A stretch of DNA of 64,000 bases from a phage, in the sequence record PZ386970.1; one strand, 5' to 3'. Numbering within the stretch: position 1 is the first letter of the stretch; each line of letters begins with the position of its first letter. Position numbers and translations under genes: made by a program. The notes under the pieces were generated by a model. That model ran no database searches, was not told where the DNA came from, and saw only the letters and a list, made by a program, of their open reading frames with translations. Below are positions 27,443 through 50,386 of this stretch, one piece after another.

Positions 27443-27459
27443 GTTTTACCTCCAGTAGT

Positions 27460-27488
27460 TGATAGGTCTATAATAACATAACCATAGA
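27460..27488 (-). promoter_or_regulatory. Early promoter with overlapping stem-loop (PeSL-like cassette): -35 GTTTAC, 17-nt spacer, -10 TATTAT
   Basis: Minus strand GTTTAC-N17-TGTTATTAT, inverted repeat GGTCTAT/ATAGACC around the -10; ~20 nt upstream of RBS and ATG of ORF 26915..27442. Confidence 0.7.
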
Positions 27489-27500
27489 CCTTGTAAACAA

Positions 27501-27788
27501 CTAAAAGAAACTTTTTTCGGTATTTTTTCCACTGAACCAAACCGACTTCGGGTTTTTTTGTAATTTTTCAGATTTAAGTTTCTCTTCCTGTTCTTTCTTA
27601 TATACACCCTTGTCGTACTGGAGCATCTCTATGGCACTCTTTTGCAAACGATCTAAGGTAATTAAGGCTTTAGTTTTTCCTTTCAAGGAAGAGTCCTGGC
27701 GAACCTCCTCGCTATATTGCATTGTAGAACTAACCATACGATGAGCATAGAGTTCGACTGCGGCTTTAATTTTTTGCATAAAATCCAT
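27501..27788 (-). CDS. Hypothetical protein
   Basis: 95 aa; AGAGGA RBS 6 nt upstream of ATG. Confidence 0.55.
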   Translation of the reverse strand: MDFMQKIKAAVELYAHRMVSSTMQYSEEVRQDSSLKGKTKALITLDRLQKSAIEMLQYDKGVYKKEQEEKLKSEKLQKNPKSVWFSGKNTEKSFF

Positions 27789-27926
27789 AACATATCCTCT
27801 TTGATTTGTACATCATTATTTTTAAATATTTCTATGCCCTCAGTAGGTTCCTGGTGTCCTTCTTTGAGGTAAGCTATATGATTATTCATCTTTATGGCTT
27901 TTGTTACCTCAGAACTTCCTATAAGC

Positions 27927-28928
27927 TTATTTCAGTAAAGTTACTTCAGAGATTTCCTCCCAACCATCTTTATCAGTTGAAATAAAATCTGCTACATAAA
28001 GAGCCGTACGTAATGATACATTGCGAAGACGAGATACGTTAGCCTTCATCCAGGACAATGCTTTATACGTTTCTGCATCCGTCAGACCACGTTTCTGCAT
28101 CATGTCAGTAGATAATATTACATCTTCAACTCGAACCATAATCTCTTCATTAGAGTGTACTCCAAGGTCGAGATACACTGAACGAGATACTAAAGCTTGA
28201 AGGTGCGGAGCAAGTTTCGAACCACGTTCTAACTCTTTATCGATATCAACGTTTGTAATGAAAACGATAGTACCTTCAAACTCAAATTCTTTATCAATAC
28301 CCTTATCATCGAGATAAGATGACGCAGTACTCCAACAAACTTTGCGTTTATCGCCAGTATCCAATGCTGCTTTAAGAAGGTTCAGGATGTCCATATCCGA
28401 GAATACGTCAACGTCGTCGATTAAGAGAACGCTGTCTGCATCACGGTTGAGCCAAAGTTGTTCGTAAAGGCCAATACCAGAGATTTTGCCATTAATGCTT
28501 TTGTATTTGATGAAACCGTTATCATTAGCATTATTAAGTGCTTTATCCAGAGAATACGTCTTACCAATACCAGCTGCACCTGAAATAATGAGTGAACGAA
28601 TTTTGCCATCGATAATGCCATTCGTCATCATGTTCATTACTTTAAAGCGTTTGTTGATACGAGTTTTCATATCTTCAGTGCTTTCAACAACTGCAACTGG
28701 TGATGTCTCAACTCCTTCCATTACGATGTCTGATTTGAAGACCCATACTCCACGTTCAGAACCATCAATCATAACGAAAATTTTACCATCACCTAAGTGG
28801 GAACATTCAGGATTAAGCTTTGCCGGGAACCATGTCTTTGTGGCAACATAAGAACCAGAGATTTCGTTATTACGATAGATACCTTTTTTGATTTGAACGT
28901 TGAACATTTTATTCTCCAATTTACTCAT
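27927..28928 (-). CDS. P-loop NTPase (AAA-like ATPase), function unknown
   Basis: 333 aa; Walker A GAAGIGKTY, Walker B LLIDDVD. Confidence 0.65.
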   Translation of the reverse strand: MSKLENKMFNVQIKKGIYRNNEISGSYVATKTWFPAKLNPECSHLGDGKIFVMIDGSERGVWVFKSDIVMEGVETSPVAVVESTEDMKTRINKRFKVMNMMTNGIIDGKIRSLIISGAAGIGKTYSLDKALNNANDNGFIKYKSINGKISGIGLYEQLWLNRDADSVLLIDDVDVFSDMDILNLLKAALDTGDKRKVCWSTASSYLDDKGIDKEFEFEGTIVFITNVDIDKELERGSKLAPHLQALVSRSVYLDLGVHSNEEIMVRVEDVILSTDMMQKRGLTDAETYKALSWMKANVSRLRNVSLRTALYVADFISTDKDGWEEISEVTLLK

Positions 28929-28945
28929 TTCGTTTCGATAGGTCT

Positions 28946-28974
28946 ATAATAACATGTTTAAAGCAAAAGTAAAC
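28946..28974 (-). promoter_or_regulatory. Early promoter (GTTTAC-N17-TATTAT), PeSL-like, upstream of the P-loop ATPase gene
   Basis: Same cassette (plus strand ataggtcTATAATAACAT…GTAAAC). Confidence 0.7.
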
Positions 28975-28976
28975 AA

Positions 28977-29195
28977 TTATTTGCGACGAGATTTTTTGGT
29001 AAGAGGTTGAAAGAACACTGCTTTACCTGCCGGGGTTAAGGTGACTCGTAATGCGTTACCGATTCCTAAGGATGCTTTAACTAGTCCTTTAGCTTTCAGT
29101 TCACCGAATGCTTGACGTTGGTCTGCATCACGAGTGTTAACCATAAGACCTTTATCACCAGCTTCACGAATCATTTCTAACATTTTGGTTTTCAT
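28977..29195 (-). CDS. Hypothetical small basic protein (start at internal Met MKTKMLEMIR with GAGGAG RBS)
   Basis: ORF-track frame 28977..29252 trimmed because its 5' end overlaps the promoter element. Confidence 0.45.
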   Translation of the reverse strand: MKTKMLEMIREAGDKGLMVNTRDADQRQAFGELKAKGLVKASLGIGNALRVTLTPAGKAVFFQPLTKKSRRK

Positions 29196-29223
29196 TTTGT
29201 TCTCCTCTTGTTTTGATAGGTCT

Positions 29224-29252
29224 ATAATAACATATCCTAAAAGCATGTACAC
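29224..29252 (-). promoter_or_regulatory. Early promoter, PeSL-like (weaker -35 GTGTAC)
   Basis: Plus-strand gataggtcTATAATAACAT…gtacac; precedes ORF 28977..29195. Confidence 0.55.
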
Positions 29253-29282
29253 TACTTTTTAAAAATATTTTGACCCCCTAAA

Positions 29283-29298
29283 GGGACCCGAAGGTCCC
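29283..29298 (-). terminator. UUCG-tetraloop hairpin downstream of the late secreted-protein gene
   Basis: Minus RNA GGGACC-UUCG-GGUCCC followed by UUUA; flanking 35 bp closely repeated at 46940-46965. Confidence 0.5.
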
Positions 29299-29303
29299 CA
29301 CAT

Positions 29304-29570
29304 TTACTTATCGCACTTAGCAACATAATTAGGCATATCACAGAATACGGAGCGAGTAACTACTCGGCCCTTTGACCATGCTTCAGTTGCTTGTCCTGCC
29401 GTGCTATTAATATAGCTTGATTTAATGTTCTCAATACCCTGAGAATGTGATGCATTTACCGAACCGTTGGAAGGTGCAGAAGACTGGTTACCACCAGCTC
29501 CTGTACCTGTGGTAGCACCAACAGAGAATGCCATCATTACTGCGAATAAACCAATTACTAATTTTTTCAT
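29304..29570 (-). CDS. Small secreted protein or lipoprotein (signal peptide), late-expressed
   Basis: 88 aa; N-terminal MKKLVIGLFAVMMAFSVGA signal peptide; TATAAATA late promoter ~33 nt upstream. Confidence 0.6.
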   Translation of the reverse strand: MKKLVIGLFAVMMAFSVGATTGTGAGGNQSSAPSNGSVNASHSQGIENIKSSYINSTAGQATEAWSKGRVVTRSVFCDMPNYVAKCDK

Positions 29571-29601
29571 ATTTACCTCAAGTTAAGAGTTATTTATCTA
29601 C

Positions 29602-30591
29602 TTATTTATAGTAAGAATTATGATTTTCGAGATAGACTTGCTCAAGGAAATCATCCCAGAAACTCATATCTACTTTTTGTTGCATACCGTTCTTAGCGGC
29701 CTGTTCTGATGCTTGTTCTACCTGGTCAACGATATCTTCTAGGAATTCTTGTACAGTTTTAAACGTATGTTTACCAAGCTTAACATCGAGAATAAATGGA
29801 GCATCTTGAAGTGGGTAAACCAGGTCGCCGGTTTTATAAATTTCCAATAGTTGAAGTCCACCACGACATGCATGACTCAATGCTTTCCAGTCAATACCTT
29901 CGTTAGCTTCTGCCTTACGAGCACGTTCACCGTAGTTCTCTTCCAGTTTAACCAGGATGGCATTGAACTCTTTATTGGTTAACGTGTCTTGGAATTTACG
30001 GTCTAACAGACTATAGAACGTTTGCTTACCTGTTTTCTCGTTTTCGGTTTCAACCCATGAAGCAAATTCACCTACAGGCAGAACATTCTTCATATGTGAT
30101 AAACGAATTACTGCACCATTATCAAAGTATTGTCCCCATTCATTAGAACGTTTAAGGGCTTGACGAAGAACAGCCAGTCGAGAACCCTTGACACCGTATT
30201 TAGAAGCTTGCTTACGGACATACCCTAAATAAGATTTCATGTTAGTGGTATAGAAACGAGACCTGTTATCTTGAATATACTTCCATACATCAGGCAAATC
30301 AGATTTAACTACTAGACTTTGTGGAGTGTGAAGCATATCTAATGCGACGGTTTCACCATCCGCAGCTAGTTTAAAGAAATATTTGAGACTATATAACTCA
30401 TGGTCCACGTCGTCTTTTGTGTTCTTAGAAGATGTGTTATTCGTGTTCTTGCTCATATGTTCTTTAACGTTACCGGTCAAGATATCACGAGCATGAGGGA
30501 CATAAATTTCTTTAAAATCGACGTCAGATTCAGGAGTAGACGTTCCATAAAGGTGGCTACCAAAGTAGCCTTTCATAATTGTTTTCATCAT
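29602..30591 (-). CDS. Pol-beta-superfamily (minimal) nucleotidyltransferase-domain protein
   Basis: 329 aa; N-terminal GSHLYGTSTPESDVDF matches the GS-x(9-13)-DxD nucleotidyltransferase signature. Confidence 0.6.
   Translation of the reverse strand: MMKTIMKGYFGSHLYGTSTPESDVDFKEIYVPHARDILTGNVKEHMSKNTNNTSSKNTKDDVDHELYSLKYFFKLAADGETVALDMLHTPQSLVVKSDLPDVWKYIQDNRSRFYTTNMKSYLGYVRKQASKYGVKGSRLAVLRQALKRSNEWGQYFDNGAVIRLSHMKNVLPVGEFASWVETENEKTGKQTFYSLLDRKFQDTLTNKEFNAILVKLEENYGERARKAEANEGIDWKALSHACRGGLQLLEIYKTGDLVYPLQDAPFILDVKLGKHTFKTVQEFLEDIVDQVEQASEQAAKNGMQQKVDMSFWDDFLEQVYLENHNSYYK
29603..29610 (-). promoter_or_regulatory. T4-type late promoter for the secreted-protein gene 29304..29570
   Basis: Minus-strand TATAAATA ~33 nt upstream of the ATG. 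Confidence 0.75.
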
Positions 30592-31613: not shown

Positions 31614-31917
31614 TTAAAGTTTCAACAAAATTCACCAAAGCATTCTGGCAAGCGTCAACCTGATTTTCATAAAAGTCTCCGTTATCATTTACCGCATGAT
31701 AAGCTACATCACTCAAATCTGAATCGGCTTCACGTAAGTCACGGATAAGGTCCATCAATTTATTAGCTTGTTCACGGGTCATTTTACCATACTCGTTTCA
31801 ATAAGATTCACTATGCCGTTTACCATGTTATAAGTAAACATCGGATAATTGTATTGTACTACAACATAAGCGATAAGCAAAAGTTTCATTTTGTTCTCCA
31901 ATTGTTTTGATAGGACT

Positions 31918-31947
31918 ACTATAACATAGTCCTACCAAGATGTAAAC
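31918..31947 (-). promoter_or_regulatory. Early promoter with stem-loop (PeSL-like)
   Basis: Plus-strand ATAGGACTACTATAACATAGTCCTA (8-bp inverted repeat) then GTAAAC; precedes small ORFs in 31614..31886. Confidence 0.65.
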
Positions 31948-32207: not shown

Positions 32208-32343
32208 CTGCCATCTTTTTCATAGCTCTGTTAATGTCGATGTCTCCATCTTCGCAACCGTGAGCATTTTCCCAATCAGATACAGCATTAGCGTACTCTT
32301 CAATCAAAAACATTAACTTAGAAATTTTTTCTTTACGTGTCAT
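32164..32343 (-). CDS. Hypothetical small protein (start at internal Met MTRKEKISKL)
   Basis: ORF-track frame 32164..32412 trimmed to the RBS-supported ATG downstream of the promoter element. Confidence 0.4.
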   Translation of the reverse strand: MTRKEKISKLMFLIEEYANAVSDWENAHGCEDGDIDINRAMKKMADAHTELQMYVNEIM

Positions 32344-32370
32344 AATGTTCTCCTCTAGTAAGTAAGGTCT

Positions 32371-32399
32371 ACTATAACACAACCTGAGGAGAAGTAAAC
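32371..32399 (-). promoter_or_regulatory. Early promoter, PeSL-like
   Basis: Plus-strand ggtctACTATAACAC…GTAAAC; precedes ORF 32164..32343. Confidence 0.6.
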
Positions 32400-35121: not shown

Positions 35122-35580
35122 CTAGATTTTAATCACTGCTTTAGAAGCTTTTCCTGGTAGTCGTTTACTGTTAATAATAGCCATTCTGCATTGAAGAGTC
35201 TTCATTTTGAATGCTGGATTTTCGCGACAAACTGTAAGGCCTAACCAAAGATTTCCATCAGTTATTTCTAAACGGCCTGGGCGATATTCGACACCTTCAA
35301 CAAAATCTTCATCAACATCCGGACGTGCCGGCATTGATAAAAATTCTGCAACTTCTTTAACATGATTTTTTACTTTATGAAATAATTCAAAAACGTAGTT
35401 CTCATCTATTTCTCTCTGGATGGCACGATCTAAGAGATGTTGAGAATACTTGATATGAAAGCCTGGTAGTCCAAGAGACTTTGCAGCATCTTTTATACCG
35501 GCATTTATTTTGCGGAACTCCGTTTCAAAGATTCGACGGAGTTTATTACGGCGGATAAAAACTTCCGAATTGATAGTCAT
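35122..35580 (-). CDS. regB: Endoribonuclease RegB
   Basis: 152 aa; near-identical to recalled T4 RegB (MTINSEVFIRRNKLRR…YSQHLLDRAIQREIDE…). Confidence 0.92.
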   Translation of the reverse strand: MTINSEVFIRRNKLRRIFETEFRKINAGIKDAAKSLGLPGFHIKYSQHLLDRAIQREIDENYVFELFHKVKNHVKEVAEFLSMPARPDVDEDFVEGVEYRPGRLEITDGNLWLGLTVCRENPAFKMKTLQCRMAIINSKRLPGKASKAVIKI

Positions 35581-35608
35581 TTTGATTTCTCCTCTAGTTG
35601 ACAGGTCT

Positions 35609-35637
35609 ATAGTAACACAACTAGAGGAGAAGTAAAC
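35609..35637 (-). promoter_or_regulatory. Early promoter, PeSL-like, upstream of regB
   Basis: Plus-strand gacaggtcTATAGTAACAC…GTAAAC immediately upstream of regB RBS/ATG. Confidence 0.7.
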
Positions 35638-35641
35638 TACT

Positions 35642-37544: not shown

Positions 37545-37702
37545 TTAGTTTCTCTTAAGGTTGGGGCCATTCCATGGCGCATGAATTGTCCATTTCTGTA
37601 TTTACCCATTACCGCACTTGGGCTCGACCTTATTACAGGTTGGTGGGAATCCCTCATAGAATCATGAGGTCCAGGTTGTTCCCATTTTATTTAAATGTAA
37701 AT

Positions 37703-37720
37703 AGGCCTAAGTATCGGCCT
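37703..37720 (-). terminator. Hairpin downstream of the IP gene 37723..38301
   Basis: Minus RNA AGGCC-GAUACUUA-GGCCU followed by AUUUACAUUU. Confidence 0.4.
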
Positions 37721-37722
37721 TA

Positions 37723-38327: not shown

Positions 38328-38642
38328 TTATTCTTTAGGGAAGTTTTTAGAGTATGCATCATAAAGTTTATTACCAATACGGCGGAAGACTTTAGCTGCA
38401 AAACGGTTTTCAGGGTTTTTAATCATGATTTGCATCATGTAAGTTCCTGCATCCGAAAGAGCTTCTTCATAGTACCCATTAATTTCTTTAAGAGTCCTAC
38501 GTTTACCGCCAGGACCGTCAACAGTAATTTTCCATTTACCTGTAGAAGTGCGGCTCGGTGGCTCAACTTGTTCAATCCAAATATAACCACCTTCAACGCG
38601 TTGGTTGGCGGATTCTGCAATAAATTCTTTATACGTTTTCAT
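38328..38642 (-). CDS. Head internal protein (IP) with capsid-targeting sequence
   Basis: 104 aa; N-terminus MKTYKEFIAES. Confidence 0.8.
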   Translation of the reverse strand: MKTYKEFIAESANQRVEGGYIWIEQVEPPSRTSTGKWKITVDGPGGKRRTLKEINGYYEEALSDAGTYMMQIMIKNPENRFAAKVFRRIGNKLYDAYSKNFPKE

Positions 38643-38672
38643 TTTTGTTTCCTTGTTTGTTTTGATAGAGTA

Positions 38673-38702
38673 ATTATACCATATTAATACTTAAGCGTAA
38701 AC
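38673..38702 (-). promoter_or_regulatory. Early promoter (-35 GTTTAC, -10 TATAAT) upstream of IP gene 38328..38642
   Basis: Minus strand GTTTAC-N18-TATAAT. Confidence 0.65.
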
Positions 38703-38972: not shown

Positions 38973-39386
38973 TTAGTAAATTGATTTACCATAGTATTTG
39001 TACCAAGTCGGACGTTGAGCAATTTTTTCATCTAAGCGTGCTTGACTTATCGCAATGGACGCTTCGGACGGGACATAATTATTACGAAATTCGGCAGGGA
39101 TGTCGGAAATATCCTGGACAGTCGTGTCCTTGATTTTGAAACCACGTTTCAAGCATTCGGCGATTAGCTCGATTTGTCGTAAACGTAAAAATTCGAGTTT
39201 GTCGTAAAAGAATGTTACGTGACCTGTGCCTAAGATAAATGTTGGAGAGATTTTAAAATCCTTTACACGTTTACCGTTTTGAACATGTTTACGGACTGCA
39301 CCAAATACGCGTGGTAATTCACGATACTCGGCCATAAGATGTTGGTCGGTCAGTTCAGAAACAAGTGTTAAATTGATACGAGTCAT
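38973..39386 (-). CDS. denV: Endonuclease V (pyrimidine-dimer DNA glycosylase) DenV
   Basis: From [34 protein letters not shown], 138 aa; near-identical to recalled T4 DenV; GGAGGAA RBS. Confidence 0.95.
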
Positions 39387-39413
39387 AATTTCCTCCAAGT
39401 AGTTGATGAATGT

Positions 39414-39443
39414 ATAGTATCAAAACCCTTGGAGGAAGTAAAC
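39414..39443 (-). promoter_or_regulatory. Early promoter, PeSL-like, upstream of denV
   Basis: Plus-strand gaatgTATAGTATCAA…GTAAAC; precedes denV RBS. Confidence 0.65.
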
Positions 39444-40704: not shown

Positions 40705-40945
40705 CTCGGTCCCATGATTTGGCCATTAATTCAGACATAAATTCTTCAATGCGCGTTTCTTTAGATGGACTTTCACTATTAGAGACCGCAAGTTTGTAAT
40801 CTGCAATAGGACAGAACATATCAAGGTCCATATTAAGGTCGTCTTTGATTTTTTCTTCTGACACATCTTTATCGTATGTGTACAGATAACTATCACATGA
40901 TTCTGATTTAATGTAAATTGCTATACTCATCTCAAATTCCTGCAT
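40694..40945 (-). CDS. Hypothetical acidic protein
   Basis: 83 aa ORF. Confidence 0.45.
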   Translation of the reverse strand: MQEFEMSIAIYIKSESCDSYLYTYDKDVSEEKIKDDLNMDLDMFCPIADYKLAVSNSESPSKETRIEEFMSELMAKSWDRDDE

Positions 40946-41274
40946 TCAGTAATAAAACGTTCAACTTCGTTATTCTTGGCTTTTATCTTGTCTTTATGTT
41001 CTTGTAAACTACTTTTAATAAGATTAATAATGATGGCGGCGGTACCGCCGCCAATGATGCCACCAACAACACTTATGATACTAGATGCTAATAAGATAGC
41101 AATAATATCAACAAAACCGAAAGAACTCACCTTAGTACTAAAAAACCATACCGACGGTACAAATATAATCCATCCTGTTATCCATTGGCACTTATTGAAA
41201 AACTTTTCAAGCTCAGCTTGAGTTGTTCGTATTACTTCATCGATAGGTTGATATCCATTAATGTATCTATTCAT
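40927..41274 (-). CDS. Hypothetical membrane protein
   Basis: 115 aa; 2 TM helices. Confidence 0.5.
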   Translation of the reverse strand: MNRYINGYQPIDEVIRTTQAELEKFFNKCQWITGWIIFVPSVWFFSTKVSSFGFVDIIAILLASSIISVVGGIIGGGTAAIIINLIKSSLQEHKDKIKAKNNEVERFITECRNLR

Positions 41275-41275: not shown

Positions 41276-41581
41276 TTATTTTCCTCGACATTCTTTAATG
41301 AAATTTTCTAGATTGGTAGATTCAATAGCTTTTTTACGAGCTTCTGCATGTTCTTCTTCAGACAATTTACATTTATAATTAACCCAGACATTATGGTCAA
41401 AACTAGTCGTGGCATATAATAACAATGCTCCAACGAATAACAAAAACGGCGATAAGAATACAAAACCAGGAACACCATCCATATCGTAAGCCTTTTGTAA
41501 TACTGCAACAGAAAGGGCTGCGTAAAAAGGTGATGCAAATATTGTTAAAAGACCAATTCGGTTGGTTTCGCCTAATTTCAT
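41276..41581 (-). CDS. Hypothetical membrane protein
   Basis: 101 aa; 2 TM helices; early promoter/stem-loop upstream. Confidence 0.5.
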   Translation of the reverse strand: MKLGETNRIGLLTIFASPFYAALSVAVLQKAYDMDGVPGFVFLSPFLLFVGALLLYATTSFDHNVWVNYKCKLSEEEHAEARKKAIESTNLENFIKECRGK

Positions 41582-41608
41582 AATATTCTCCTCATGTTTA
41601 ATAGGACT

Positions 41609-41638
41609 ACTATAACATAGTCCTATAATTGTGTAAAC
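41609..41638 (-). promoter_or_regulatory. Early promoter with stem-loop (PeSL-like)
   Basis: Plus-strand ATAGGACTACTATAACATAGTCCTAT then GTAAAC; precedes ORF 41276..41581. Confidence 0.7.
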
Positions 41639-42632: not shown

Positions 42633-42872
42633 TTAAATTTCACGACATGCGATATTATATTCATCCCAGAGGTCATCGTGTGAAGCCTCTACCAATGGAA
42701 CGATTGTACCGTTTATGTCTTCATTATAAGGGCAAATTGTACAGTGCGCATCTTCGAATCGGATGCCTTTGTGTTCAGATTTTTTATAACGCATATCGAA
42801 TATCTTTGCAAACTTTTCACGAGTAATGGTTTTACCAACCACTTTGGTTCCGATACTTTCGTAATAAATCAT
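42633..42872 (-). CDS. Hypothetical protein (start at MIYYESIG with GGAG RBS)
   Basis: ORF-track frame 42633..42884, trimmed 4 codons. Confidence 0.5.
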   Translation of the reverse strand: MIYYESIGTKVVGKTITREKFAKIFDMRYKKSEHKGIRFEDAHCTICPYNEDINGTIVPLVEASHDDLWDEYNIACREI

Positions 42873-42900
42873 TGTGGACTCCATTTAATTTGATAGGACT

Positions 42901-42930
42901 ACTATAACATAGCCCTATCTTGTTGTAAAC
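42901..42930 (-). promoter_or_regulatory. Early promoter with stem-loop (PeSL-like)
   Basis: Plus-strand gATAGGACTACTATAACATAGCCCTATc then GTAAAC; precedes ORF 42633..42872. Confidence 0.7.
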
Positions 42931-43423: not shown

Positions 43424-43729
43424 TTAGCACAATGCAGAAGACGAAACCCAAGCACCTTCAGTAATAACGTAACCATTACCTTCACGCTTAACATCGCCAC
43501 CATTATTTTCAATTTCATCTTTCATCCACTGGGATACGATTTCACCCTTAGGATAATAAGTACGACCGCTACCATAATCACCTACAGAAAATGATACGGC
43601 ATATTGGTCTGCGATCTTTGTTGCTTCTTCTTCGATACGTTCAGCTTGATTCAGAAGTTTATAAATTGCATCTGAAGCAGATTTGGCATCATTAAACTCT
43701 GGTACTTTAATTTCAATAATCTTACTCAT
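43424..43729 (-). CDS. Small acidic protein, tandem paralog family member (…GAWVSSSALC)
   Basis: 101 aa; N-terminal MSKII…; conserved C-terminal motif. Confidence 0.55.
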   Translation of the reverse strand: MSKIIEIKVPEFNDAKSASDAIYKLLNQAERIEEEATKIADQYAVSFSVGDYGSGRTYYPKGEIVSQWMKDEIENNGGDVKREGNGYVITEGAWVSSSALC

Positions 43730-44085
43730 TTTCTACATTCCTTAATAAAGTTTTCGATTGTTTCATTTTCACGTTTAGCTAGGAGTTCATTATAACTAAT
43801 CATTTGAGAAGCGTAAACCTTTTTATTTTTCTTGTTATGGTTTATAAAATCGTAGTAAAAATAGACTACAGTACAAAATGATGCGATGGATGCAAAGGCT
43901 TGGGTATACCGTAAGTCCTGCCATTGGTCTGTGAATCCACTGGTATTCCCTATAAATCCTAACACAACTCCGTCAATAAGAAATCCAACTAATCCAAAGG
44001 CAAATCCCATGCCAATACTCATAATAAAAATTAGAATGTTCTCACCAAGAGAAGGCCATACGGTTAAGAGTTGAGGCTTTTGCAT
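43726..44085 (-). CDS. Hypothetical membrane protein
   Basis: 119 aa; 3 hydrophobic helices. Confidence 0.5.
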   Translation of the reverse strand: MQKPQLLTVWPSLGENILIFIMSIGMGFAFGLVGFLIDGVVLGFIGNTSGFTDQWQDLRYTQAFASIASFCTVVYFYYDFINHNKKNKKVYASQMISYNELLAKRENETIENFIKECRK

Positions 44086-45053: not shown

Positions 45054-45075
45054 GGAGGACCGGAGTCCTCCGTAT
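45054..45075 (-). terminator. Terminator-like hairpin between ORFs
   Basis: GGAGGAC-(UCCG)-GUCCUCC followed by UUUUGG on the minus strand; T-rich on plus strand as well. Confidence 0.55.
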
Positions 45076-45079: not shown

Positions 45080-45673
45080 TTATTTCAAAGAGTTAATATA
45101 TTCTTGTACATCAGCAGAAGTGGTTTCGACACCGGCTGGAGTGCCATTGAACGTTTCAACACGAGTCAGAGTGTCTTCGATATCAACCTTAGTCAGTGCA
45201 GCGATTTCAATTACATCATCAGCCGTAGAGATACCAAGGGCATTGGCTGCTCGAGTTTCACGAATGTATTCGAGTTTGATTGCCAGGTTCTGACGAGCAT
45301 CGTCAAGTTCAACCACCTTACGAGCAATTTCAATTCGCATAGCGGCATACCCGTCAGCTTTTGTATTAAGTTGTTCGGCAGTTCGACGATACAGAAGACC
45401 AAGCTTAGCATGCATGGTAACATCTTGTCCTTCAGCCAGGAGCTTACGAATTTCACGTTCCTTAGAAGCGGCTTGCTTGTTCTTTTCATTAACAAGTTCG
45501 CGAATACGTTTTTCTTCATTAATAGATTTAACAGAAGCCGTTTTTAGTTCTTTGATTTGGGTAATCAACTTATCTGCAGCTGCGTTATACTGTTCTTCGA
45601 CAGTCAGATTTTTAGCCATAGCAGTACCCAGTTTAGTGCGGATAAATTCAACAAGTTTCTTCAGTGTGTTCAT
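45080..45673 (-). CDS. Coiled-coil protein (possible PspA/IM30-like), start at [10 protein letters not shown]
   Basis: ORF-track frame 45080..45715 trimmed; long amphipathic coiled coil (…[44 protein letters not shown]…); PspA resemblance is a weak impression. Confidence 0.5.
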
Positions 45674-45743
45674 ATTATTACCTTTCAATTGGTGGTTTAT
45701 TATCCATGAGAGCATTATACTCTGCTCTCAGGAGTTTGTACAC

Positions 45744-45992
45744 TTATTTGTACGAATTAATAATCTCTTCCATTTTATCCAGAACATGGATATCGATTAT
45801 ACGAGGAAGTGCCGAAAGATTAGAACCGTCGAAAGATTTAAGGTCTTCCAAAATAATATTTTCAATGGCTTTTAAAGCTTCCGCAGATTCTGATGCAGAA
45901 TTAAATTCAGGAATTTCTCCAAAAAGACGTAAGAATGAACCAAAGTATTCTGCGGCGATTTCTTTAGCTTGTTCGATATCAGACTTAAACAT
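45744..45992 (-). CDS. Hypothetical acidic protein (start at MFKSDIEQAK)
   Basis: ORF-track frame 45744..46025 trimmed to the RBS-supported ATG. Confidence 0.45.
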   Translation of the reverse strand: MFKSDIEQAKEIAAEYFGSFLRLFGEIPEFNSASESAEALKAIENIILEDLKSFDGSNLSALPRIIDIHVLDKMEEIINSYK

Positions 45993-46049
45993 TTTGTTTT
46001 CCTCATTTGTTGGTGGAGTAATCATATCACCATCCTTGGCGTTTGTACA

Positions 46050-46277
46050 TTATTTTTTAATCAAATTGACATAAAACTTGGCGTCTTCCGGGTGCATGCC
46101 TTCGCAGTATTCTTCAACCATGAACTTCTTAACAGCTTCATAAGGACCACTCAGATTAAGCTCAGTTGTCCAGAACTTGGAATCTTGGACTGAATCGATA
46201 CGAACTTCAGGGTGACGATTGCGAATAACTTCTTCGGTGTATTCATAATCAACGACATCAATACTAACTGTAGCCAT
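46050..46277 (-). CDS. Hypothetical protein
   Basis: 75 aa ORF with upstream promoter element. Confidence 0.5.
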   Translation of the reverse strand: MATVSIDVVDYEYTEEVIRNRHPEVRIDSVQDSKFWTTELNLSGPYEAVKKFMVEEYCEGMHPEDAKFYVNLIKK

Positions 46278-46305
46278 TTTGTTTTCCTCTTGATTTGATG
46301 TGATT

Positions 46306-46335
46306 ACTATAACATAAACTTACTTAGATGTAAAT
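46306..46335 (-). promoter_or_regulatory. Early promoter-like element (-35 ATTTAC)
   Basis: Plus-strand tgattACTATAACAT…GTAAAT; precedes ORF 46050..46277. Confidence 0.5.
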
Positions 46336-46488
46336 TATTTCAACGTCACCTTTAGCTGCTTTATAACCTTCGGCCCAAGATACAACAGAGTTTTTATCTG
46401 AGGATTCAAATTCAGGCATTGGGCTCTCGCCAATATTCACACAGTATGTTTCTTCGTTTTCATCGAACCAAATAATTAAAGTAGTCAT
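46324..46488 (-). CDS. Hypothetical small protein (54 aa, below ORF-track cutoff)
   Basis: Manual translation MTTLIIWFDENEETYCVNIGESPMPEFESSDKNSVVSWAEGYKAAKGDVEIIYI; AGGAG RBS; upstream promoter element. Confidence 0.35.
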   Translation of the reverse strand: MTTLIIWFDENEETYCVNIGESPMPEFESSDKNSVVSWAEGYKAAKGDVEIIYI

Positions 46489-46517
46489 TTTGTTTACTCC
46501 TCTGTAGTTGATAAGTC

Positions 46518-46546
46518 TATAGTATCATCATCCTTTTGGCTTGTAC
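46518..46546 (-). promoter_or_regulatory. Promoter-like element (-35 TGTACA, N17, -10 TACTAT)
   Basis: Plus-strand gataagtcTATAGTATCAT…TGTACA; precedes small ORF 46324..46488. Confidence 0.5.
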
Positions 46547-46555
46547 ATCATTATT

Positions 46556-46861
46556 TTAATTTTTCCAACTTAACAACTTGTAGTATCCTTCATTCGTACG
46601 AGGTTTATCCCAAGAAATACTAATATATGATTCGCTATCAATAGAAGTCGCCGGGTTTTTCTCTACCGTAAGACCTTCACTTTCCAGCCATTCAATAGTA
46701 TTTGCGCATAAATCAGAAGAACACCTCATCGGAAACCGGCAAGATTTTTCACCTTTAGCTGCAGTGTTATACATCTTTTCTAAAATACGCTTTTGCACGT
46801 TTTTAAAAATAGTTTCAGCAGATTCTTCAGATTTTTTATTCAGTTCAGTATAAAGACTCAT
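46556..46861 (-). CDS. Hypothetical protein
   Basis: 101 aa ORF with upstream promoter element. Confidence 0.5.
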   Translation of the reverse strand: MSLYTELNKKSEESAETIFKNVQKRILEKMYNTAAKGEKSCRFPMRCSSDLCANTIEWLESEGLTVEKNPATSIDSESYISISWDKPRTNEGYYKLLSWKN

Positions 46862-46889
46862 AACATTTTCCTCTGTAGTCGATAAGTCT

Positions 46890-46918
46890 ATAGTATCACA
46901 TCTAGGGAAGAAGTAAAC
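46890..46918 (-). promoter_or_regulatory. Early promoter, PeSL-like
   Basis: Plus-strand gataagtcTATAGTATCAC…GTAAAC; precedes ORF 46556..46861. Confidence 0.65.
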
Positions 46919-46965: not shown

Positions 46966-46970
46966 ATTCT

Positions 46971-47597: not shown

Positions 47598-47632
47598 TGA
47601 TGGTCCTTAGAAGGTAGGTTTATTGTTTACTA

Positions 47633-47640: not shown

Positions 47641-47641
47641 C

Positions 47642-47670
47642 AAAAAAGCCCCAACCTTTCGGAAGGGGCT
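47642..47670 (-). terminator. Rho-independent terminator (minus strand) at the end of the tRNA/small-RNA region
   Basis: Minus RNA AGCCCCUUCC-GAAA-GGUUGGGGCUUUUUU. Confidence 0.7.
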
Positions 47671-47689
47671 ATGCCTTGCGGCAACCTTG

Positions 47690-47980: not shown

Positions 47981-47981
47981 C

Positions 47982-48326
47982 TTATTTTGGCATATCATCA
48001 ATTTGTTCTCGACGCCTACGCCATAGATTAATCGCTTCATTGACACATTCTGCGTTTGGTATATGACGGCAATAATATAATGATTCGCGTTTCTGGAACC
48101 GATGTTGCAACGGGATTTCGTTTAAAAGGTCTTTACGGTCAAAGTATTCAAAACTAGTTAACCCGGAACGGTTTTTAAGAAACTTCCAATGTCCGAATTC
48201 ATTTTGAAAATAAACATAATCAGCATGCTGATACAGCGAATTAATTAACCTATCGGAAATAACTGTTTCACGTTCGTTAAAATAAAACGTTAAATCATGA
48301 ACTACCAGATAAACATTGCCTTTCAT
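47982..48326 (-). CDS. Hypothetical protein downstream of the tRNA genes (start at MKGNVYLVVHD)
   Basis: ORF-track frame 47982..48374 trimmed because its first 16 codons overlap the tRNA-Arg gene; GAGGAAAAT RBS before the internal ATG. Confidence 0.5.
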   Translation of the reverse strand: MKGNVYLVVHDLTFYFNERETVISDRLINSLYQHADYVYFQNEFGHWKFLKNRSGLTSFEYFDRKDLLNEIPLQHRFQKRESLYYCRHIPNAECVNEAINLWRRRREQIDDMPK

Positions 48327-48344
48327 ATTTTCCTCACTTGAAGT

Positions 48345-48421
<77 letters not shown>

Positions 48422-48425
48422 GATT

Positions 48426-48500
48426 GGTGACCCTGGCTGGTTTCGATCCAGCTACCTATCAGTTATGAGCTGACAGCTCTCCCATTGAGCTACAGGGCCT
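48426..48500 (-). tRNA. tRNA with CAU anticodon (Met, or Ile if lysidine-modified as in T4 tRNA-Ile)
   Basis: Manual cloverleaf: acceptor GGCCCTG/CAGGGTC, D-arm GCTC-AATGGGA-GAGC, anticodon stem GTCAG/CTGAT with loop CTCATAA, T-arm GCTGG-ATCGAAA-CCAGC, 3' ACCA. Confidence 0.8.
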
Positions 48501-48578
48501 TAATAACTTTCTATTATGAAAGGCACTTTAGAGCACCTTTGGTAATAGAGGGTATGAATTAATAATAACACATAATTC

Positions 48579-49103
48579 TTAAAGCAAATCAATCATTTTA
48601 ACAGTTGGCAAAACAATTTCTTCTTCAATATAAGCAAATTCAACACGTTCAACTACACGCAAGAAATCGTAATCATAGTATTCAGAAGCATAGCCAAGAA
48701 TATCAATAAGTCCTTGAGATATCTCATCGCCTTTAACAAAGAACAGGTCGAATACGCGGGCTTCGTCTTCTTCAGATTTATCACCAAGGTCTACTTCGAT
48801 GCCAAAGACCTTTTTAATAAATTCCGGTTGGAGTTGGTCTGAGAACAGTCCTTCAACCAAGTATTCATAGATTAAAAGCGAGCAATCACTGAATGGCGTA
48901 TTGCCACAGTAACGTTCAGCTTTAGTGCTGGAATGACGGCTCTTAAATTTCTTCAAGAGGTATTTGAACTGTTGGAGCTCATGCTCTTCCACTTCAAACA
49001 ATGTTTTGGTTTTATAGTTGTCGCCGTCATTTTCATAGGTAGTGACATCAATTACGTAACCCTTAGGAATTGTACTGCCTAAACAAATATTCATTTTACT
49101 CAC
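48579..49103 (-). CDS. Hypothetical protein
   Basis: 174 aa ORF. Confidence 0.55.
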   Translation of the reverse strand: MSKMNICLGSTIPKGYVIDVTTYENDGDNYKTKTLFEVEEHELQQFKYLLKKFKSRHSSTKAERYCGNTPFSDCSLLIYEYLVEGLFSDQLQPEFIKKVFGIEVDLGDKSEEDEARVFDLFFVKGDEISQGLIDILGYASEYYDYDFLRVVERVEFAYIEEEIVLPTVKMIDLL

Positions 49104-49390
49104 CGTACCATATTAATGTAATTATATTCAATGCAACGTAATTTCAAAGGGTTCTTGAAAATATCATATTCAAGAGGGCCTTTTTCTGTTTCGATAAAGA
49201 AATCAAAGTTCACACTATTAAATTTGCGGTCTTCCCAAAGTAATTTAACCTGTGAAGATGAACGGTCGATATAAACTTTTTCAACTTCAAAGTTGGTCAA
49301 AATACCATAGTCATCAACTAGTGCTTTAGCTGCACGTTGGTCGCTTTCATATCCATTCTCAACGGATTTTACCTTAGCATAAAGAATCAT
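49100..49390 (-). CDS. Hypothetical protein
   Basis: 96 aa ORF, overlaps the upstream stop. Confidence 0.5.
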   Translation of the reverse strand: MILYAKVKSVENGYESDQRAAKALVDDYGILTNFEVEKVYIDRSSSQVKLLWEDRKFNSVNFDFFIETEKGPLEYDIFKNPLKLRCIEYNYINMVR

Positions 49391-49767
49391 GAATGTTCCA
49401 CCACTTCAAAGGTATGAGCATCAACAATATGATACCAGTCAAAATTTTCTTCTGCGTTTTTATAAATTTCGCGAAGAGCCTCAACAGTTTTACCTTTAGC
49501 GTAAAGGTCGTCGATACCACCATAAGGATAACAGTCATAACCAGCAAACAGAAGGAAATTAATAGTTTCTGTAGGGGCTGGATGCAGAACGCCGTTATCA
49601 TCTACTACTTCAAAGAATGTGTAAGAAGGAGTACAAGTTTTAATCCAAGCCCATGCTTGAGCCGCTGAATCAAATGGTCTGCGTATCAAACGACAATCAG
49701 GGTCTTTAGAAGGATTTGCTTCAAAATCCGCATATACATGATATTTCATTTTACTCATCTTTTGCAA
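49387..49767 (-). CDS. Hypothetical protein
   Basis: 126 aa ORF. Confidence 0.55.
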   Translation of the reverse strand: MQKMSKMKYHVYADFEANPSKDPDCRLIRRPFDSAAQAWAWIKTCTPSYTFFEVVDDNGVLHPAPTETINFLLFAGYDCYPYGGIDDLYAKGKTVEALREIYKNAEENFDWYHIVDAHTFEVVEHS

Positions 49768-49936
49768 TTTTATCCATAACGATAGCGATTAAGCCGATTA
49801 GAAATGCTACTACCAATGAGATAGAATTTTCTGTTGTTGTCAGTAGTCCACAAATGAATCCTACAAACATCGAAAAACTAAAAGCCATTGAAGCAATTAC
49901 TACAGCAACATTACGAATCAGTTCAGCACGTTTCAT
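49751..49936 (-). CDS. Hypothetical small membrane protein
   Basis: 61 aa; two hydrophobic helices; upstream promoter element. Confidence 0.45.
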   Translation of the reverse strand: MKRAELIRNVAVVIASMAFSFSMFVGFICGLLTTTENSISLVVAFLIGLIAIVMDKIAKDE

Positions 49937-49964
49937 TTTATTCTCCTCAGTAGTTGATAGGGTA

Positions 49965-49994
49965 ATAGTATCACTACCCTATCTAAAAGTAAAC
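49965..49994 (-). promoter_or_regulatory. Early promoter with stem-loop (PeSL-like)
   Basis: Plus-strand GATAGGGTAATAGTATCACTACCCTATC (9-bp inverted repeat) then GTAAAC; precedes ORF 49751..49936. Confidence 0.7.
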
Positions 49995-50005
49995 GGTTTT
50001 ATAAA

Positions 50006-50314
50006 CTATTTTATTCCGCGTGATGCAATCGTATTCTGCCGTTTAACGCCAGTTTGTTTAAAGTTATGATTGTCGAGTTGATCGGTACGAGCAACTCCGA
50101 ATGATGATTTAATCTTAGCTTTAGATCCTTTAGTTATAGAAATAAACATCTCGGGAGCCCCTTTCTTAAAGTCCGAAGCAATTACTTCAACACCGTTCTT
50201 AGCAAGTGACCTCAGAATTGCTTCCGCATACTCATCATCAAGACCCGCTTGAGTATGAATAACGAATGTCTTTGGTGCAGCTGCTTCACAGATAAATTCT
50301 TTAAATGTTTTCAT
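50006..50314 (-). CDS. Head internal protein (IPI position) with capsid-targeting sequence
   Basis: 102 aa; N-terminus MKTFKEFICEAA; adjacent to 57B as ipI is in T4. Confidence 0.75.
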   Translation of the reverse strand: MKTFKEFICEAAAPKTFVIHTQAGLDDEYAEAILRSLAKNGVEVIASDFKKGAPEMFISITKGSKAKIKSSFGVARTDQLDNHNFKQTGVKRQNTIASRGIK

Positions 50315-50344
50315 TTTATTTTCCTAATTAATTTTGATAGGACT

Positions 50345-50374
50345 ACTATAACATAGTCCTATCAGCATGTAAAC
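50345..50374 (-). promoter_or_regulatory. Early promoter with stem-loop (PeSL-like) upstream of the IPI-like gene
   Basis: Plus-strand ATAGGACTACTATAACATAGTCCTAT then GTAAAC. Confidence 0.7.
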
Positions 50375-50386
50375 TGTTTTGTGAAA

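Follow-up and report, generated by a model that had tools for sequence, protein, structure and literature searches.

Early promoter and leader cassettes of a T4-like coliphage, often folded as hairpins around the -10, coincide with breakpoints between related phages

Repeated early promoters in a Mosigvirus

The 64,000-nucleotide stretch of record PZ386970.1 analysed here (the window) belongs to a Mosigvirus, an RB69/JS09-like T-even coliphage, and includes the region nrdC–tk–regB–ipIII–denV–e–tRNA–ipI, with all of its genes on the minus strand. A first-pass annotation had described a promoter of the form GTTTAC-N17/18-TATWRT that recurs at the gene junctions between 27455 and 50380. A motif search confirmed this architecture, yielding 12 exact matches in the window versus 0.19 expected, every one of them on the minus strand, and at most 2 in 100 shuffled controls. 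Nine fall within 27455-50380, the others lying at 14192, 17388 and 24851. A relaxed search, which allowed the -10 TACTAT and the -35 variants GTGTAC, ATGTAC and ATTTAC and required a downstream Shine-Dalgarno sequence (SD) and ATG, retrieved 24 minus-strand cassettes versus 2 spurious plus-strand matches in the window; a 25th, cassette 45743, was spotted by eye. With variants allowed, 18 of the 25 cassettes lie within 27455-50380 (Table 1). Across 72 T4-like loci together with the window, 403 matches lie on the sense strand versus 30 on the antisense strand.

Read 5' to 3', a cassette comprises an A-rich upstream element (42% A versus 33% for the strand), the -35 GTTTAC, a spacer of 17 or 18 nt, an extended -10 (TGnTAnnnT), a conserved start region (..CCTATCAA, whose A is the 7th base after the -10; 77% of the 243 distinct cassettes carry an A there), a CAA-rich linker and, at its 3' end, the SD GGAG(A)AUAAAAUG, which resembles the RegB-type GGAG site. 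The short distance to the ribosome-binding site noted earlier holds for most cassettes, the SD beginning 15-20 nt past the -10, with the exceptions of 28974 (29 nt) and 43818 (47 nt). What had been described as a conserved loop is likewise present and is simply the extended -10 (TGTTATAGT). The -35 GTTTAC, the 17-18 nt spacer, the TGn extended -10, the A-rich upstream element and the extra conserved positions around the start are all shared with the T4 early promoters (Pe; UP/-35/TGn/-10 class; Hinton 2010). The recurring element is a T4-like coliphage's standard early promoter with its leader, in many cases folded as a hairpin around the -10. Each site can be regarded as a putative early promoter of the T4 type (host sigma-70), joined to a leader that is close to standard.

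Table 1. Cassettes and a neighbouring hairpin in the window; cassettes are named in the text by their higher coordinate
Position	Strand	Feature	Folding energy, z or basis	Context and breakpoints
50312..50374	-	Cassette, local 12-bp hairpin, -10 in loop	-17.7 kcal/mol, z -4.96	Precedes internal head protein gene 50006-50314 (PHROG assignment); breakpoints at 50283-50375, junction overlap 56-84 nt
49934..49994	-	Cassette, local hairpin GATAGGGTAGTG/TATTACCCTATC	z -3.38	Precedes trna.4-like gene 49751-49936; breakpoint 49946-49948 in 4 relatives
46859..46918	-	Cassette without significant hairpin	z 0.15	Precedes ORF 46556-46861; breakpoint at 46873
46486..46548	-	Cassette, -35 variant ATGTAC, without hairpin	z 0.32	Precedes ORF 46324-46488; breakpoint at 46571
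46275..46335	-	Cassette, -35 ATTTAC, without hairpin	z 0.88	Precedes frd.3-like ORF 46050-46277; breakpoint at 46299
45990..46050	-	Cassette, -35 ATGTAC, without hairpin	folding	Upstream flank of ORF 45744-45992 (rare accessory ORF, present in only 8 phage records); breakpoint 46041 in 8/9 relatives
45671..45743	-	Cassette, -35 GTGTAC, local hairpin CTGAGAGC/GCTCTCATGG	-18.4 kcal/mol, z -3.98	Downstream flank of ORF 45744-45992; breakpoint at 45749
43727..43818	-	Early-promoter-like site, long leader, without hairpin	z 0.53	Inside 3' end of e.3-like ORF; breakpoint exactly 43818 in 3 relatives
42870..42930	-	Cassette, local hairpin with G.U pair (GATAGGGCT/AGTCCTATC)	z -3.88	
41579..41638	-	Cassette, local hairpin	z -3.15	Precedes ORF 41276-41581; in 4 relatives the -35 edge (41632/41638) is the exact insertion point of a 262-nt ORF
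39384..39443	-	denV cassette, spacer TTCCTCCAAG pairs with SD region CTTGGAGGAA	-19.1 kcal/mol, z -4.10	Upstream of denV; same layout in T4 denV and many denV orthologues
38640..38702	-	Cassette without hairpin	z -0.48	Precedes Ip10-like gene 38328-38642; breakpoints 38614-38620
35578..35637	-	regB cassette, spacer TTCTCCTCTAGTTG pairs with SD-containing CAACTAGAGGAGAA	-21.6 kcal/mol, z -4.93	Upstream of regB; breakpoint at 35641
32341..32399	-	Cassette, spacer TTCTCCTC pairs with SD GAGGAGAA; marginal fold	z -1.12	
31887..31947	-	Cassette, local hairpin GGTAGGACTAT/GTAGTCCTATC	z -4.07	-35 overlapped by stop codon from upstream
29272..29300 (approximate)		GC hairpin followed by TTT		Ahead of cassette 29252
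29193..29252	-	Cassette, -35 GTGTAC, without hairpin around -10	z -0.15	Upstream flank of ORF 28977-29195; breakpoint at 29179
28905..28974	-	Cassette without hairpin	z 0.86	Downstream flank of ORF 28977-29195; nrdC.10-like gene follows; breakpoint 28965 with 65-nt overlap to the 29252 cassette, 6/9 relatives
27440..27498	-	Cassette, local hairpin in shifted register AGGTCTATGGT/ATTATAGACCT	z -1.94	Precedes nrdC.8-like gene
17881..17940	-	Cassette outside 27455-50380, spacer CCTCGATAG pairs with SD-containing CTATAGAGG	z -1.89	
16929..16992	-	Cassette outside 27455-50380, 14-bp local hairpin	-22 kcal/mol, z -6.39	Atypical -10 (TAACAT) within hairpin; -35 ATGTAC
14165..14221	-	Early promoter cassette outside 27455-50380, without hairpin	motif	Similar cassettes start at 24880, 23496, 17417 and 25857

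Hairpins in about half of the cassettes

The folding energy of each cassette was compared with that of shuffled sequences, a z of -3 or lower denoting a fold far better than the shuffles. This level is reached by eight of the 18 cassettes within 27455-50380 (50374, 49994, 45743, 42930, 41638, 39443, 35637 and 31947), with z from -3.15 to -4.96. Cassettes 27498 (z -1.9) and 32399 (z -1.1) are borderline, and eight fold no better than shuffles (46918, 46548, 46335, 46050, 43818, 38702, 29252 and 28974). The earlier count of at least a dozen sites with the -10 in a hairpin loop was overstated, and the observation behind it is partly confirmed: a hairpin occurs in about half of the cassettes, not in all. 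The three stems quoted as examples were all found, ATAGGAC/GTCCTAT at 50374, 41638 and 31947 and, with a G.U pair, at 42930; GGTCTAT/ATAGACC at 27498; and GATAGGGTA/TACCCTATC at 49994. The local hairpins of 50374, 42930, 41638 and 31947 are near-identical paralogous copies.

The stems follow two layouts. In the local class the stem forms around the -10, and the spacer, located 5' of the start site, is paired to the discriminator and the start region. The other class, overlooked by the first-pass annotation, has the spacer paired with the SD, as at regB and denV; cassettes 39443, 35637 and 32399 carry such longer-range stems with the SD region, not a local one. T4 shows the same layouts at regB, denV, ipI, ipII and ipIII. 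Judging from the consensus and the usual sigma-70 spacing, transcription likely starts within the 3' arm or downstream of it. RNA from the promoter itself would then lack the hairpin, which could form only in read-through RNA. A U-tract was sought 3' of the eight local hairpins and none was found, with 2-3 T in the 8 nt past the 3' arm and an A-rich tail. A terminator scan picked up none of the local hairpins.

Spacer and leader covary across T4-like phages

Among 254 cassettes from T4-like contigs, the duplex between spacer and leader averages -10.3 kcal/mol and reaches -12 or better in 39%, compared with 7% of controls with swapped partners and 2% of those with shuffled spacers (p = 4e-17). 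Spacer–leader complementarity is cassette-specific. In the review of early promoters by Hinton 2010, which treats recognition elements only, it is absent. The proposed covariation of the stems persists when more instances are aligned and extends to the orthologous regB site. The 57 different local stems share one common geometry, a fixed register is found in 29 cassettes versus 4.4 after permutation, and 8 of 9 stem pairs show double-sided changes. The regB cassette displays compensatory evolution over 15 lineages, 13 of which keep a hairpin, and its spacer binds its own leader with a mean of -16.6 kcal/mol versus -10.1 with the leader of another lineage. A consensus structure of the regB cassettes did not emerge from MAFFT combined with RNAalifold, since the register of the arms differs from lineage to lineage. 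Of 243 spacers, 75 contain an anti-SD tetramer (14.7 expected), and a third of the cassettes use the SD itself as their 3' arm.

Strand asymmetry informs on the level at which the hairpins act. In an energy test of the cassettes the sense strand is favoured 81 to 37, the swapped control being even (646 versus 654), and within the local class the sense strand is favoured 40 to 11. In the fixed-register local set G.T exceeds A.C by 28 to 11. A symmetric count of internal transition mismatches showed no strand bias (G.T 27 versus A.C 23), and action of the local class at the RNA level is therefore favoured, not proven.

Breakpoints follow the cassette, not the hairpin

Synteny breakpoints were called against nine relatives. 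Cassette footprints, which make up 8.8% of the sequence, contain 14 of the 39 breakpoints (p = 3e-6), and a breakpoint is found at 12 of 18 cassette junctions versus 11 of 40 others (Fisher p = 0.006), in agreement with the earlier proposal that module boundaries coincide with the cassettes. The overlaps at the junctions, 15-84 nt long, are the cassette repeats. This link is independent of the hairpin: cassettes without one lie at breakpoints at least as often (7 of 8 junctions, the eighth, 43818, having one at its -35 edge) as those with strong hairpins (5 of 8). A hairpin is missing from roughly half of the cassettes and is therefore dispensable for promoter function and for recombination. 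The recombination substrate is likely the homology of the whole promoter and leader and not the stem.

Interpretation and alternatives

The best explanation, to which we assign a probability of about 0.6, is that the sites are early promoter–leader cassettes in which the hairpin separates read-through RNA units and the leader homology drives ORF shuffling. Acting on RNA, the hairpin would keep neighbouring early transcription units apart. Where the spacer pairs with the SD, the ribosome site and GGAG may be hidden in read-through RNA, so that the early transcript of the gene itself would be the main one both translated and open to RegB. GGAG is shielded from RegB by secondary structure, and T4 e, soc, 49 and I-TevI are known cases of control by a promoter within a hairpin (PMC3014915), a logic that would here be carried to early promoters. 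In those T4 genes (Uzan and Miller 2010) the SD is paired in transcripts from upstream promoters, and the hairpin-internal promoter gives a transcript without the 5' arm and with a free SD; the same is predicted here. The T4 examples use late promoters and silence early read-through RNA, whereas here the internal promoter is early and the arrangement, as predicted from sequence, recurs at many genes (regB, denV and others). In a folding model, SD masking was not cassette-specific, the probability of an unpaired SD in read-through RNA being 0.29 when the upstream half was the cassette's own and 0.32 when it came from another cassette, because many cassettes share the anti-SD. The local class would most likely act as a 3' stabiliser or attenuator of the upstream message and not as a canonical terminator.

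The stem-loops could alternatively terminate or attenuate upstream transcription, each cassette being a self-contained terminator-plus-promoter unit as proposed for the PeSLs of T4-type phages. In RB49 the PeSL211/210 stem-loop cut lacZ expression as much as rrnB T1 (Arbiol 2010, PMC2839356), a terminator-like activity that supports attenuation and fits poorly with a purely post-transcriptional role; the lacZ assay, however, cannot tell termination from effects on translation or RNA stability. Like intrinsic (Rho-independent) terminators, the hairpins are stable (-14 to -22 kcal/mol) stem-loops at the end of the upstream gene, at gene junctions, and a classical GC hairpin with TTT lies ahead of one cassette (29252). 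Unlike such terminators, they enclose the -10 in a large loop (6-12 nt or more), none of the eight local hairpins leads into a U-tract, their tails being A-rich, and the terminator scan missed them all. The use of the SD as 3' arm in a third of the cassettes points to control of translation, not of termination, and in T4 the 3' ends of prereplicative RNAs are considered to mark where stable RNA ends and not where transcription terminates (PMC6024815). We consider this reading unlikely.

An action of the inverted repeat in DNA is more doubtful still. An extruded cruciform or single-strand hairpin could present the -10 and tune or switch off the early promoter, whose shut-off mechanism in T4 is stated as unknown (PMC3014915, PMC2988021), or an endonuclease VII-type cut could start recombination. 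The -10 does sit in the loop in a fixed register, the symmetric mismatch count lacks a strand bias, and cassettes and breakpoints coincide; but breakpoints are no rarer at cassettes without a hairpin, the junction overlaps are consistent with homologous exchange, and the sense strand is favoured in both the energy-based and the fixed-register tests. Action in DNA gives no reason for the SD-pairing class, and stems of 9-14 bp with loops of 6-12 nt or more would make poor cruciforms. A palindrome centred on the -10, the classic operator position, might also be bound by a dimeric protein regulating early promoters. Such a sequence-specific protein would instead conserve the arm sequence, yet the arms vary freely with complementarity kept (57 distinct stems, double-sided changes in 8 of 9 pairs), G.T wobbles are tolerated, and register and arm length vary, which leaves an operator hardly credible. 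That the hairpins are functionless, accidental palindromes inherited with duplicated cassettes, would suit the four near-identical paralogues and the half of the cassettes without any stem. It is already disfavoured, and very improbable, given that complementarity in the 254 cassettes far exceeds the swapped and shuffled controls and that regB and denV orthologues keep the pairing by compensatory changes from T4 to Mosigvirus.

Relation to PeSLs and gene exchange

The cassettes are the published PeSLs (Arbiol 2010, Comeau 2014); the finding is real and already known. PeSLs were described in the T4-type phages RB49/phi1 as a conserved promoter and stem-loop bordering ORFs that have been inserted, deleted or replaced (Arbiol 2010, PMC2839356). 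Comeau 2014 (PMC4122927) added those of T4/PST, whose promoter is likewise TTTACW-N17-TAYWAT, and of KVP40/nt-1. The parallel drawn earlier with promoter–stem-loop cassettes at module edges is correct (PMC2839356, PMC4122927), and the interpretation built on it is supported. As in PeSLs, a repeated intergenic AT-rich region combines a sigma-70-type early promoter, a stem-loop, an SD and a start codon; the repeats concentrate in the hyperplastic early region and lie at boundaries of insertion, deletion or replacement between close relatives, and the promoter consensus equals that of T4/PST. PeSL-like repeats at T-even internal-protein loci were reportedly seen by Repoila et al. in 1994, and the window spans the IP loci treated by Repoila and by Arbiol. 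Several features differ. Unlike the GC-rich GGGG...CCCC stems of RB49, the stems here have a mixed, more AT-rich composition, which Arbiol also observed in T-evens, and their sequences lack U-tracts. According to a figure legend in Comeau 2014, the PST stems lie 'just upstream' of the promoter, whereas those described here enclose the -10 or reach the SD. In the PeSL papers examined we found no report of the SD-pairing class, of covariation statistics or of hairpin-independent breakpoints.

With 60-90 nt of conserved DNA, promoter and leader together would offer short homology patches to T4's recombination system and would therefore permit the exchange of ORFs flanked by two cassettes. Such ORFs may be gained, lost and replaced among related phages, as in the PeSL modular-shuffling model. 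The PeSL cassette marks where related phages swap accessory genes.

Early promoter cassettes and their genomic setting

Across 90-97% of its length, the interval 27455-50380 is ~96% identical to genomes of Mosigvirus phages such as p000v, JS09, ESh15 and moskry, whose annotation assigns it to the early region of T-even phages. Its genes follow the order nrdC.x – mobD.x – rI – tk – vs – regB – vs.3-8 – ipIII and other internal proteins – denV, continuing with e – nudE – e.2-e.8 – tRNAs – trna.2-4 – ipI-like – 57B/57A, and every gene from nrdC.x to 57B/57A lies on the minus strand. Both the ipIII/denV and the ipI regions fall within the window; PeSL-like repeats (PeSL, promoter-early stem-loop) at both T-even internal-protein loci are described by Repoila et al. 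1994, as cited by Arbiol et al. At breakpoints 48345/48428, p000v carries a homing endonuclease gene (22319-22987 of its locus L001) where the window holds 82 nt.

Exact matches to GTTTAC-N17/18-TATWRT number 12 in the window, all on the minus strand, nine inside the interval and three outside it, compared with a mean of 0.19 and a maximum of 2 in the shuffle control. A relaxed search, which also accepted TACTAT as -10 and GTGTAC, ATGTAC or ATTTAC as -35 and required a Shine-Dalgarno sequence (SD) and ATG downstream, returned 24 sites on the minus strand and two spurious ones on the plus strand. We refer to such a unit of early promoter and leader as a cassette, named by its 5' start on the minus strand; cassette 45743 was spotted by eye as the 25th. 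The promoter and leader architecture described in the first-pass annotation is thus confirmed and commoner than stated there, with 18 of the 25 cassettes in the interval. The proposed SD spacing also holds, since in nearly all cassettes the SD starts 15-20 nt past the -10, with the ATG following. The 25-nt stretch that precedes the -35 is 70% AT, with A at 42% vs 33% strand-wide. All 25 cassettes lie within 14-51 kb, the plus-strand block from ~54 kb having none, and the ORFs that follow them either fall into PHROGs without an assigned function or encode internal head proteins.

T4 early promoters (Pe) are active right after infection, using unmodified host RNA polymerase and requiring no phage protein synthesis, and the cassettes agree with the Pe consensus at the sequence level. 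Sigma-70 promoters usually start transcription around the seventh base after the -10. This base is A in 77% of 243 distinct cassettes from T4-like phages, inside a conserved CCTATCAA, and we infer that transcription starts at this A.

Hairpins at the promoters

The segment from -35 to ATG was folded for each cassette, with 200 dinucleotide shuffles as control. A stable stem-loop next to or over the promoter, as in PeSLs, is found in eight of the 18 cassettes in the interval (z <= -3), is marginal in two, and is lacking in the other eight, which fold like their shuffles (see table); 'degraded' PeSLs have also been reported by Comeau 2014 (PMC4122927). The hairpins adopt two layouts. In the local class, a stem of 9-14 bp joins the distal spacer to the bases right after the -10, with the extended -10 in the loop. 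This is the arrangement the first-pass annotation had described, and the three stem variants it quoted were all found as written. It overlooked the SD-pairing class, in which a pyrimidine-rich spacer (TTCTCCTC...) pairs with the SD region (...GAGGAGAA) 15-25 nt downstream. An Rfam search placed the cassettes in no RNA family and matched only two tRNAs.

Hairpin layout and fold of the cassettes (5' start), and position of the tRNA genes; strong, z -3.2 to -5.0
Feature	Position	Strand	Layout	Fold
Cassette	50374	-	local	strong
Cassette	49994	-	local	strong
tRNA-Arg(tct) and tRNA-Met(cat)	48345-48499	-		
Cassette	46918	-		shuffle-like
Cassette	46548	-		shuffle-like
Cassette	46335	-		shuffle-like
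Cassette	46050	-		shuffle-like
Cassette	45743	-	local	strong
Cassette	43818	-		shuffle-like
Cassette	42930	-	local	strong
Cassette	41638	-	local	strong
Cassette upstream of denV	39443	-	SD-pairing	strong
Cassette	38702	-		shuffle-like
Cassette upstream of regB	35637	-	SD-pairing	strong
Cassette	32399	-	SD-pairing	marginal, z -1.1
Cassette	31947	-	local	strong
Cassette	29252	-		shuffle-like
Cassette	28974	-		shuffle-like
Cassette	27498	-	local	marginal, z -1.9
Cassette outside the interval	17940	-	SD-pairing	
Cassette outside the interval	16992	-	local	

The strongest hairpin of the window (16929-16992, minus strand; 14 bp, -22 kcal/mol, z -6.4) encloses an atypical -10 (TAACAT) behind a -35 of ATGTAC. 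It may be a degraded promoter that has retained its stem. A third layout was seen upstream of denV in six other T4-like contigs (L134, L151, L163, L176, L178 and L145), where GTCCTCC right after the -10 pairs with the denV SD GGAGGAC, again placing the 5' arm at the presumed start site or ahead of it.

Selection on the stems

We combined the window with 72 loci surrounding homologues of tk and e in T4-like viral contigs, which gave 254 distinct GTTTAC cassettes. In this set the coding strand carries 403 copies of the motif and the other strand 30. Spacers pair with their own leaders at a mean duplex energy of -10.3 kcal/mol, reaching -12 or better in 39%; the values are -7.0 kcal/mol and 7% with another cassette's leader (Mann-Whitney p = 4e-17, own vs swapped) and -5.9 kcal/mol and 2% for shuffled spacers with their own leader. 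Duplex energies replaced a count of minimum-free-energy base pairs spanning the -10, which was dropped as it did not discriminate, because AU-rich controls also fold. A viral-contig scan for GTTTAC...TGTTATAGT illustrated the variety of stems by eye and was kept out of the statistics, its hits being mostly chance matches in unrelated phages.

The set includes 57 distinct local stems, alike in geometry but widely divergent in their arms, for example GGTAGGAAG/CTTCCTACC, GATGAGGTA/TACCTCATC and GGTGTAAGAT/GATCTTACACC. In the dominant register, at least 8/9 positions are paired in 29 cassettes vs 4.4 with permuted partners. Double-sided changes occur in eight of the nine stem pairs across 23 of these 29 cassettes, and slid registers drop to ~40% pairing; because the 23 sequences were pre-selected for pairing, it is the variety of pair types that is informative, not the percentage paired. 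An operator for a binding protein was rejected as an explanation, given that the arm sequences vary freely.

The cleanest test of selected complementarity is the orthologous cassette upstream of regB, whose hairpin is kept in 13/15 lineages and whose spacers pair with their own leader at a mean of -16.6 kcal/mol vs -10.1 with the leader of another lineage. This comparison was used in place of MAFFT and RNAalifold, which found no consensus structure for 23 regB cassettes because the arms change register between lineages. The same hairpin layouts are present at T4 regB, denV, ipI, ipII and ipIII. In addition, anti-SD tetramers occur in 75/243 distinct spacers, compared with 14.7 expected from composition. 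The compensatory variation noted from a few stems is thus borne out by the energies of the 254 cassettes, the double-sided pairs and the regB orthologues, and this covariation, orthologous sites included, indicates that the stems are under selection.

Terminators and other hairpins

An intrinsic terminator consists of a GC-rich hairpin with a U-rich tract within 0-2 nt. No U-tract follows any of the eight local hairpins (the next 8 nt hold 2-3 T and the tails are A-rich) and a terminator scan reported none of them; they are therefore not canonical intrinsic terminators.

Cassette 29252 differs from the others in having a GC hairpin (GGGGACCTTCGGGTCCC, 29272-29300, minus strand) followed by TTT directly upstream, the classical arrangement of terminator and then promoter. 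The ipIII-like and vs.8-like genes are separated by an unusually long non-coding gap of ~180 nt (37545-37722, minus strand), which starts with the terminator-like hairpin AGGCCGATACTTAGGCCT (37703-37720) and contains a second hairpin, CCTCATGATTCTATGAGG. Although free of cassettes, this gap is where breakpoints of the internal-protein locus are commonest (37643/37690/37703, 7/9 relatives). A perfect GC palindrome, GGAGGACTCCGGTCCTCC (45054-45071), between the e.5-like and e.6-like genes is terminator-like on both strands in the scan, and a GC-rich palindrome, TGGCGGCGGTACCGCCGCCA (41034-41053, minus strand), lies inside ORF 40927-41274.

A possible role at the RNA level

With the start site placed as described, the 5' arm and most of the 3' arm of a local hairpin would be absent from the cassette's own transcript, and the hairpins would therefore be possible only in RNA initiated further upstream. 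Energies of the two strands were compared in this context: the sense RNA duplex is the stabler in 81 cassettes vs 37 for antisense (local class, 40 vs 11), the swapped controls giving 646 vs 654. Fixed-register local hairpins chosen on Watson-Crick pairs only contain 28 G.T vs 11 A.C. When the internal transition mismatches of ungapped helices were counted symmetrically, the figures were 27 G.T vs 23 A.C, which is not significant. An initial count of G.U vs A.C (91 vs 6) was discarded for its energy-model bias; the symmetric versions are mixed. For the local class, action as sense RNA is thus favoured but not established, while for the SD-pairing class it is argued for by the involvement of the SD itself.

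Across 253 cassettes, the predicted unpaired probability of the SD is 0.58 in the cassette's own transcript vs 0.29 in read-through RNA. Grafting another cassette's upstream half yields 0.32, close to the read-through value because the anti-SD is common to many cassettes; by this control the gap comes from the shared anti-SD and not from pairing specific to each cassette. For 35637, 39443, 32399 and 17940, the SD and/or AUG is predicted to be paired in read-through RNA and, given the presumed start, free in RNA from the internal promoter.

Comparable control is known from T4 e, soc, 49 and I-TevI, in which an SD-sequestering hairpin with an internal promoter silences long transcripts (PMC3014915). 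The logic is the same and the timing class differs, the internal promoter there being late (gp55) and here early, of sigma-70 type. Two further points fit a role in RNA: RegB spares GGAG sites in structured RNA (PMC3014915), and 3' ends of T4 prereplicative RNA are held to be ends of stable RNA, not termination sites (PMC6024815). Our literature search found no genome-wide dataset of T4 transcript 5' or 3' ends.

In one possible mechanism, an untranscribed part of the promoter (spacer or discriminator) would be kept complementary to the SD/leader of the gene by compensatory evolution. Read-through RNA would be untranslatable and RegB-resistant, and RNA from the gene's own promoter would be translated and then cut. 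We assign a probability of roughly 0.4 to the reading that a large share of the early genes of T4-like phages, regB and denV among them, is gated in this way by the promoter from which the transcript originates.

Cassettes at module boundaries

Alignment of 26-52 kb of the window with nine Mosigvirus relatives (L001, L223-L230) revealed 39 distinct breakpoints, 14 of which fall inside cassette junction footprints covering 8.8% of the sequence (binomial p = 3e-6). Breakpoints are found at 12/18 cassette-bearing gene junctions vs 11/40 others (Fisher p = 0.006, odds ratio 5.3), in line with the earlier suggestion that the cassettes mark boundaries of shuffled modules.

In several events it is the cassettes that form the overlap at the junction. 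Six relatives lack ORF 28977-29195, which is flanked by cassettes 29252 and 28974, and show a junction overlap of 65 nt; eight lack ORF 45744-45992 (minus strand), flanked by cassettes 46050 and 45743. The latter ORF (82 aa, phrog_13919, unknown function) is a rare accessory gene, as it occurs in only 8/50,697 phage records, all at >=98.8% identity; a search for it at a second locus, checked in JN02, placed it in the same region. ESh15 carries an extra internal-protein gene flanked by 84 nt comprising the 50374 cassette and conserved N-terminal codons, and in four relatives the insertion point of a 262-nt ORF coincides exactly with the -35 edge of the 41638 cassette.

Cassettes with no hairpin are no less frequent at breakpoints than those that have one: of the eight hairpin-less cassettes, seven have a breakpoint in the junction and the eighth (43818) has one at its -35 edge, compared with 5/8 of the strong-hairpin cassettes. 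Exchange therefore appears to use the homology of promoter and leader, not the stem.

Relation to published PeSLs and significance

The cassettes are of a kind already known from a well-studied phage group and published as the PeSL model (Arbiol 2010, PMC2839356; Comeau 2014, PMC4122927), and the interpretation in the first-pass annotation was correct. Like published PeSLs, the cassettes combine a promoter with AT-rich DNA upstream, an SD, a start codon and, in some of them, a stem-loop; they also cluster in hyperplastic regions and are associated with indels, and the promoter consensus is that given for T4/PST PeSLs. There are also differences. RB49 PeSL stems are GC-rich and those of the window are not; the legend of the PST figure places stems upstream of the promoter, whereas here they surround the -10 or extend to the SD. 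PeSLs are described as having a promoter that is strong in vivo, a stem-loop that terminates or attenuates upstream transcription, and mini-circle activity; the sequence of the cassettes in the window lacks the U-tract of an intrinsic terminator.

As published, such cassettes show how small accessory genes are set up for immediate expression and explain their easy exchange between relatives. Our quantitative additions are the selection on stems, anti-SD sequences in a third of spacers, the lack of terminator tails and breakpoints independent of hairpins. Four points may go beyond the PeSL papers: the class of stems that pair with the SD, compensatory changes at orthologous promoters, hairpins that lack terminator tails, and breakpoints that do not depend on hairpins. 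If gating by promoter of origin is true, it would extend to early genes in general a principle known from a few late ones (e, soc, 49 and I-TevI), and would set the RNA role of the stem apart from the role of the cassette as DNA homology in module shuffling. If confirmed, it would refine the view of early, delayed-early and RegB control and aid the annotation of early transcription units in T4-like genomes that lack transcript data.
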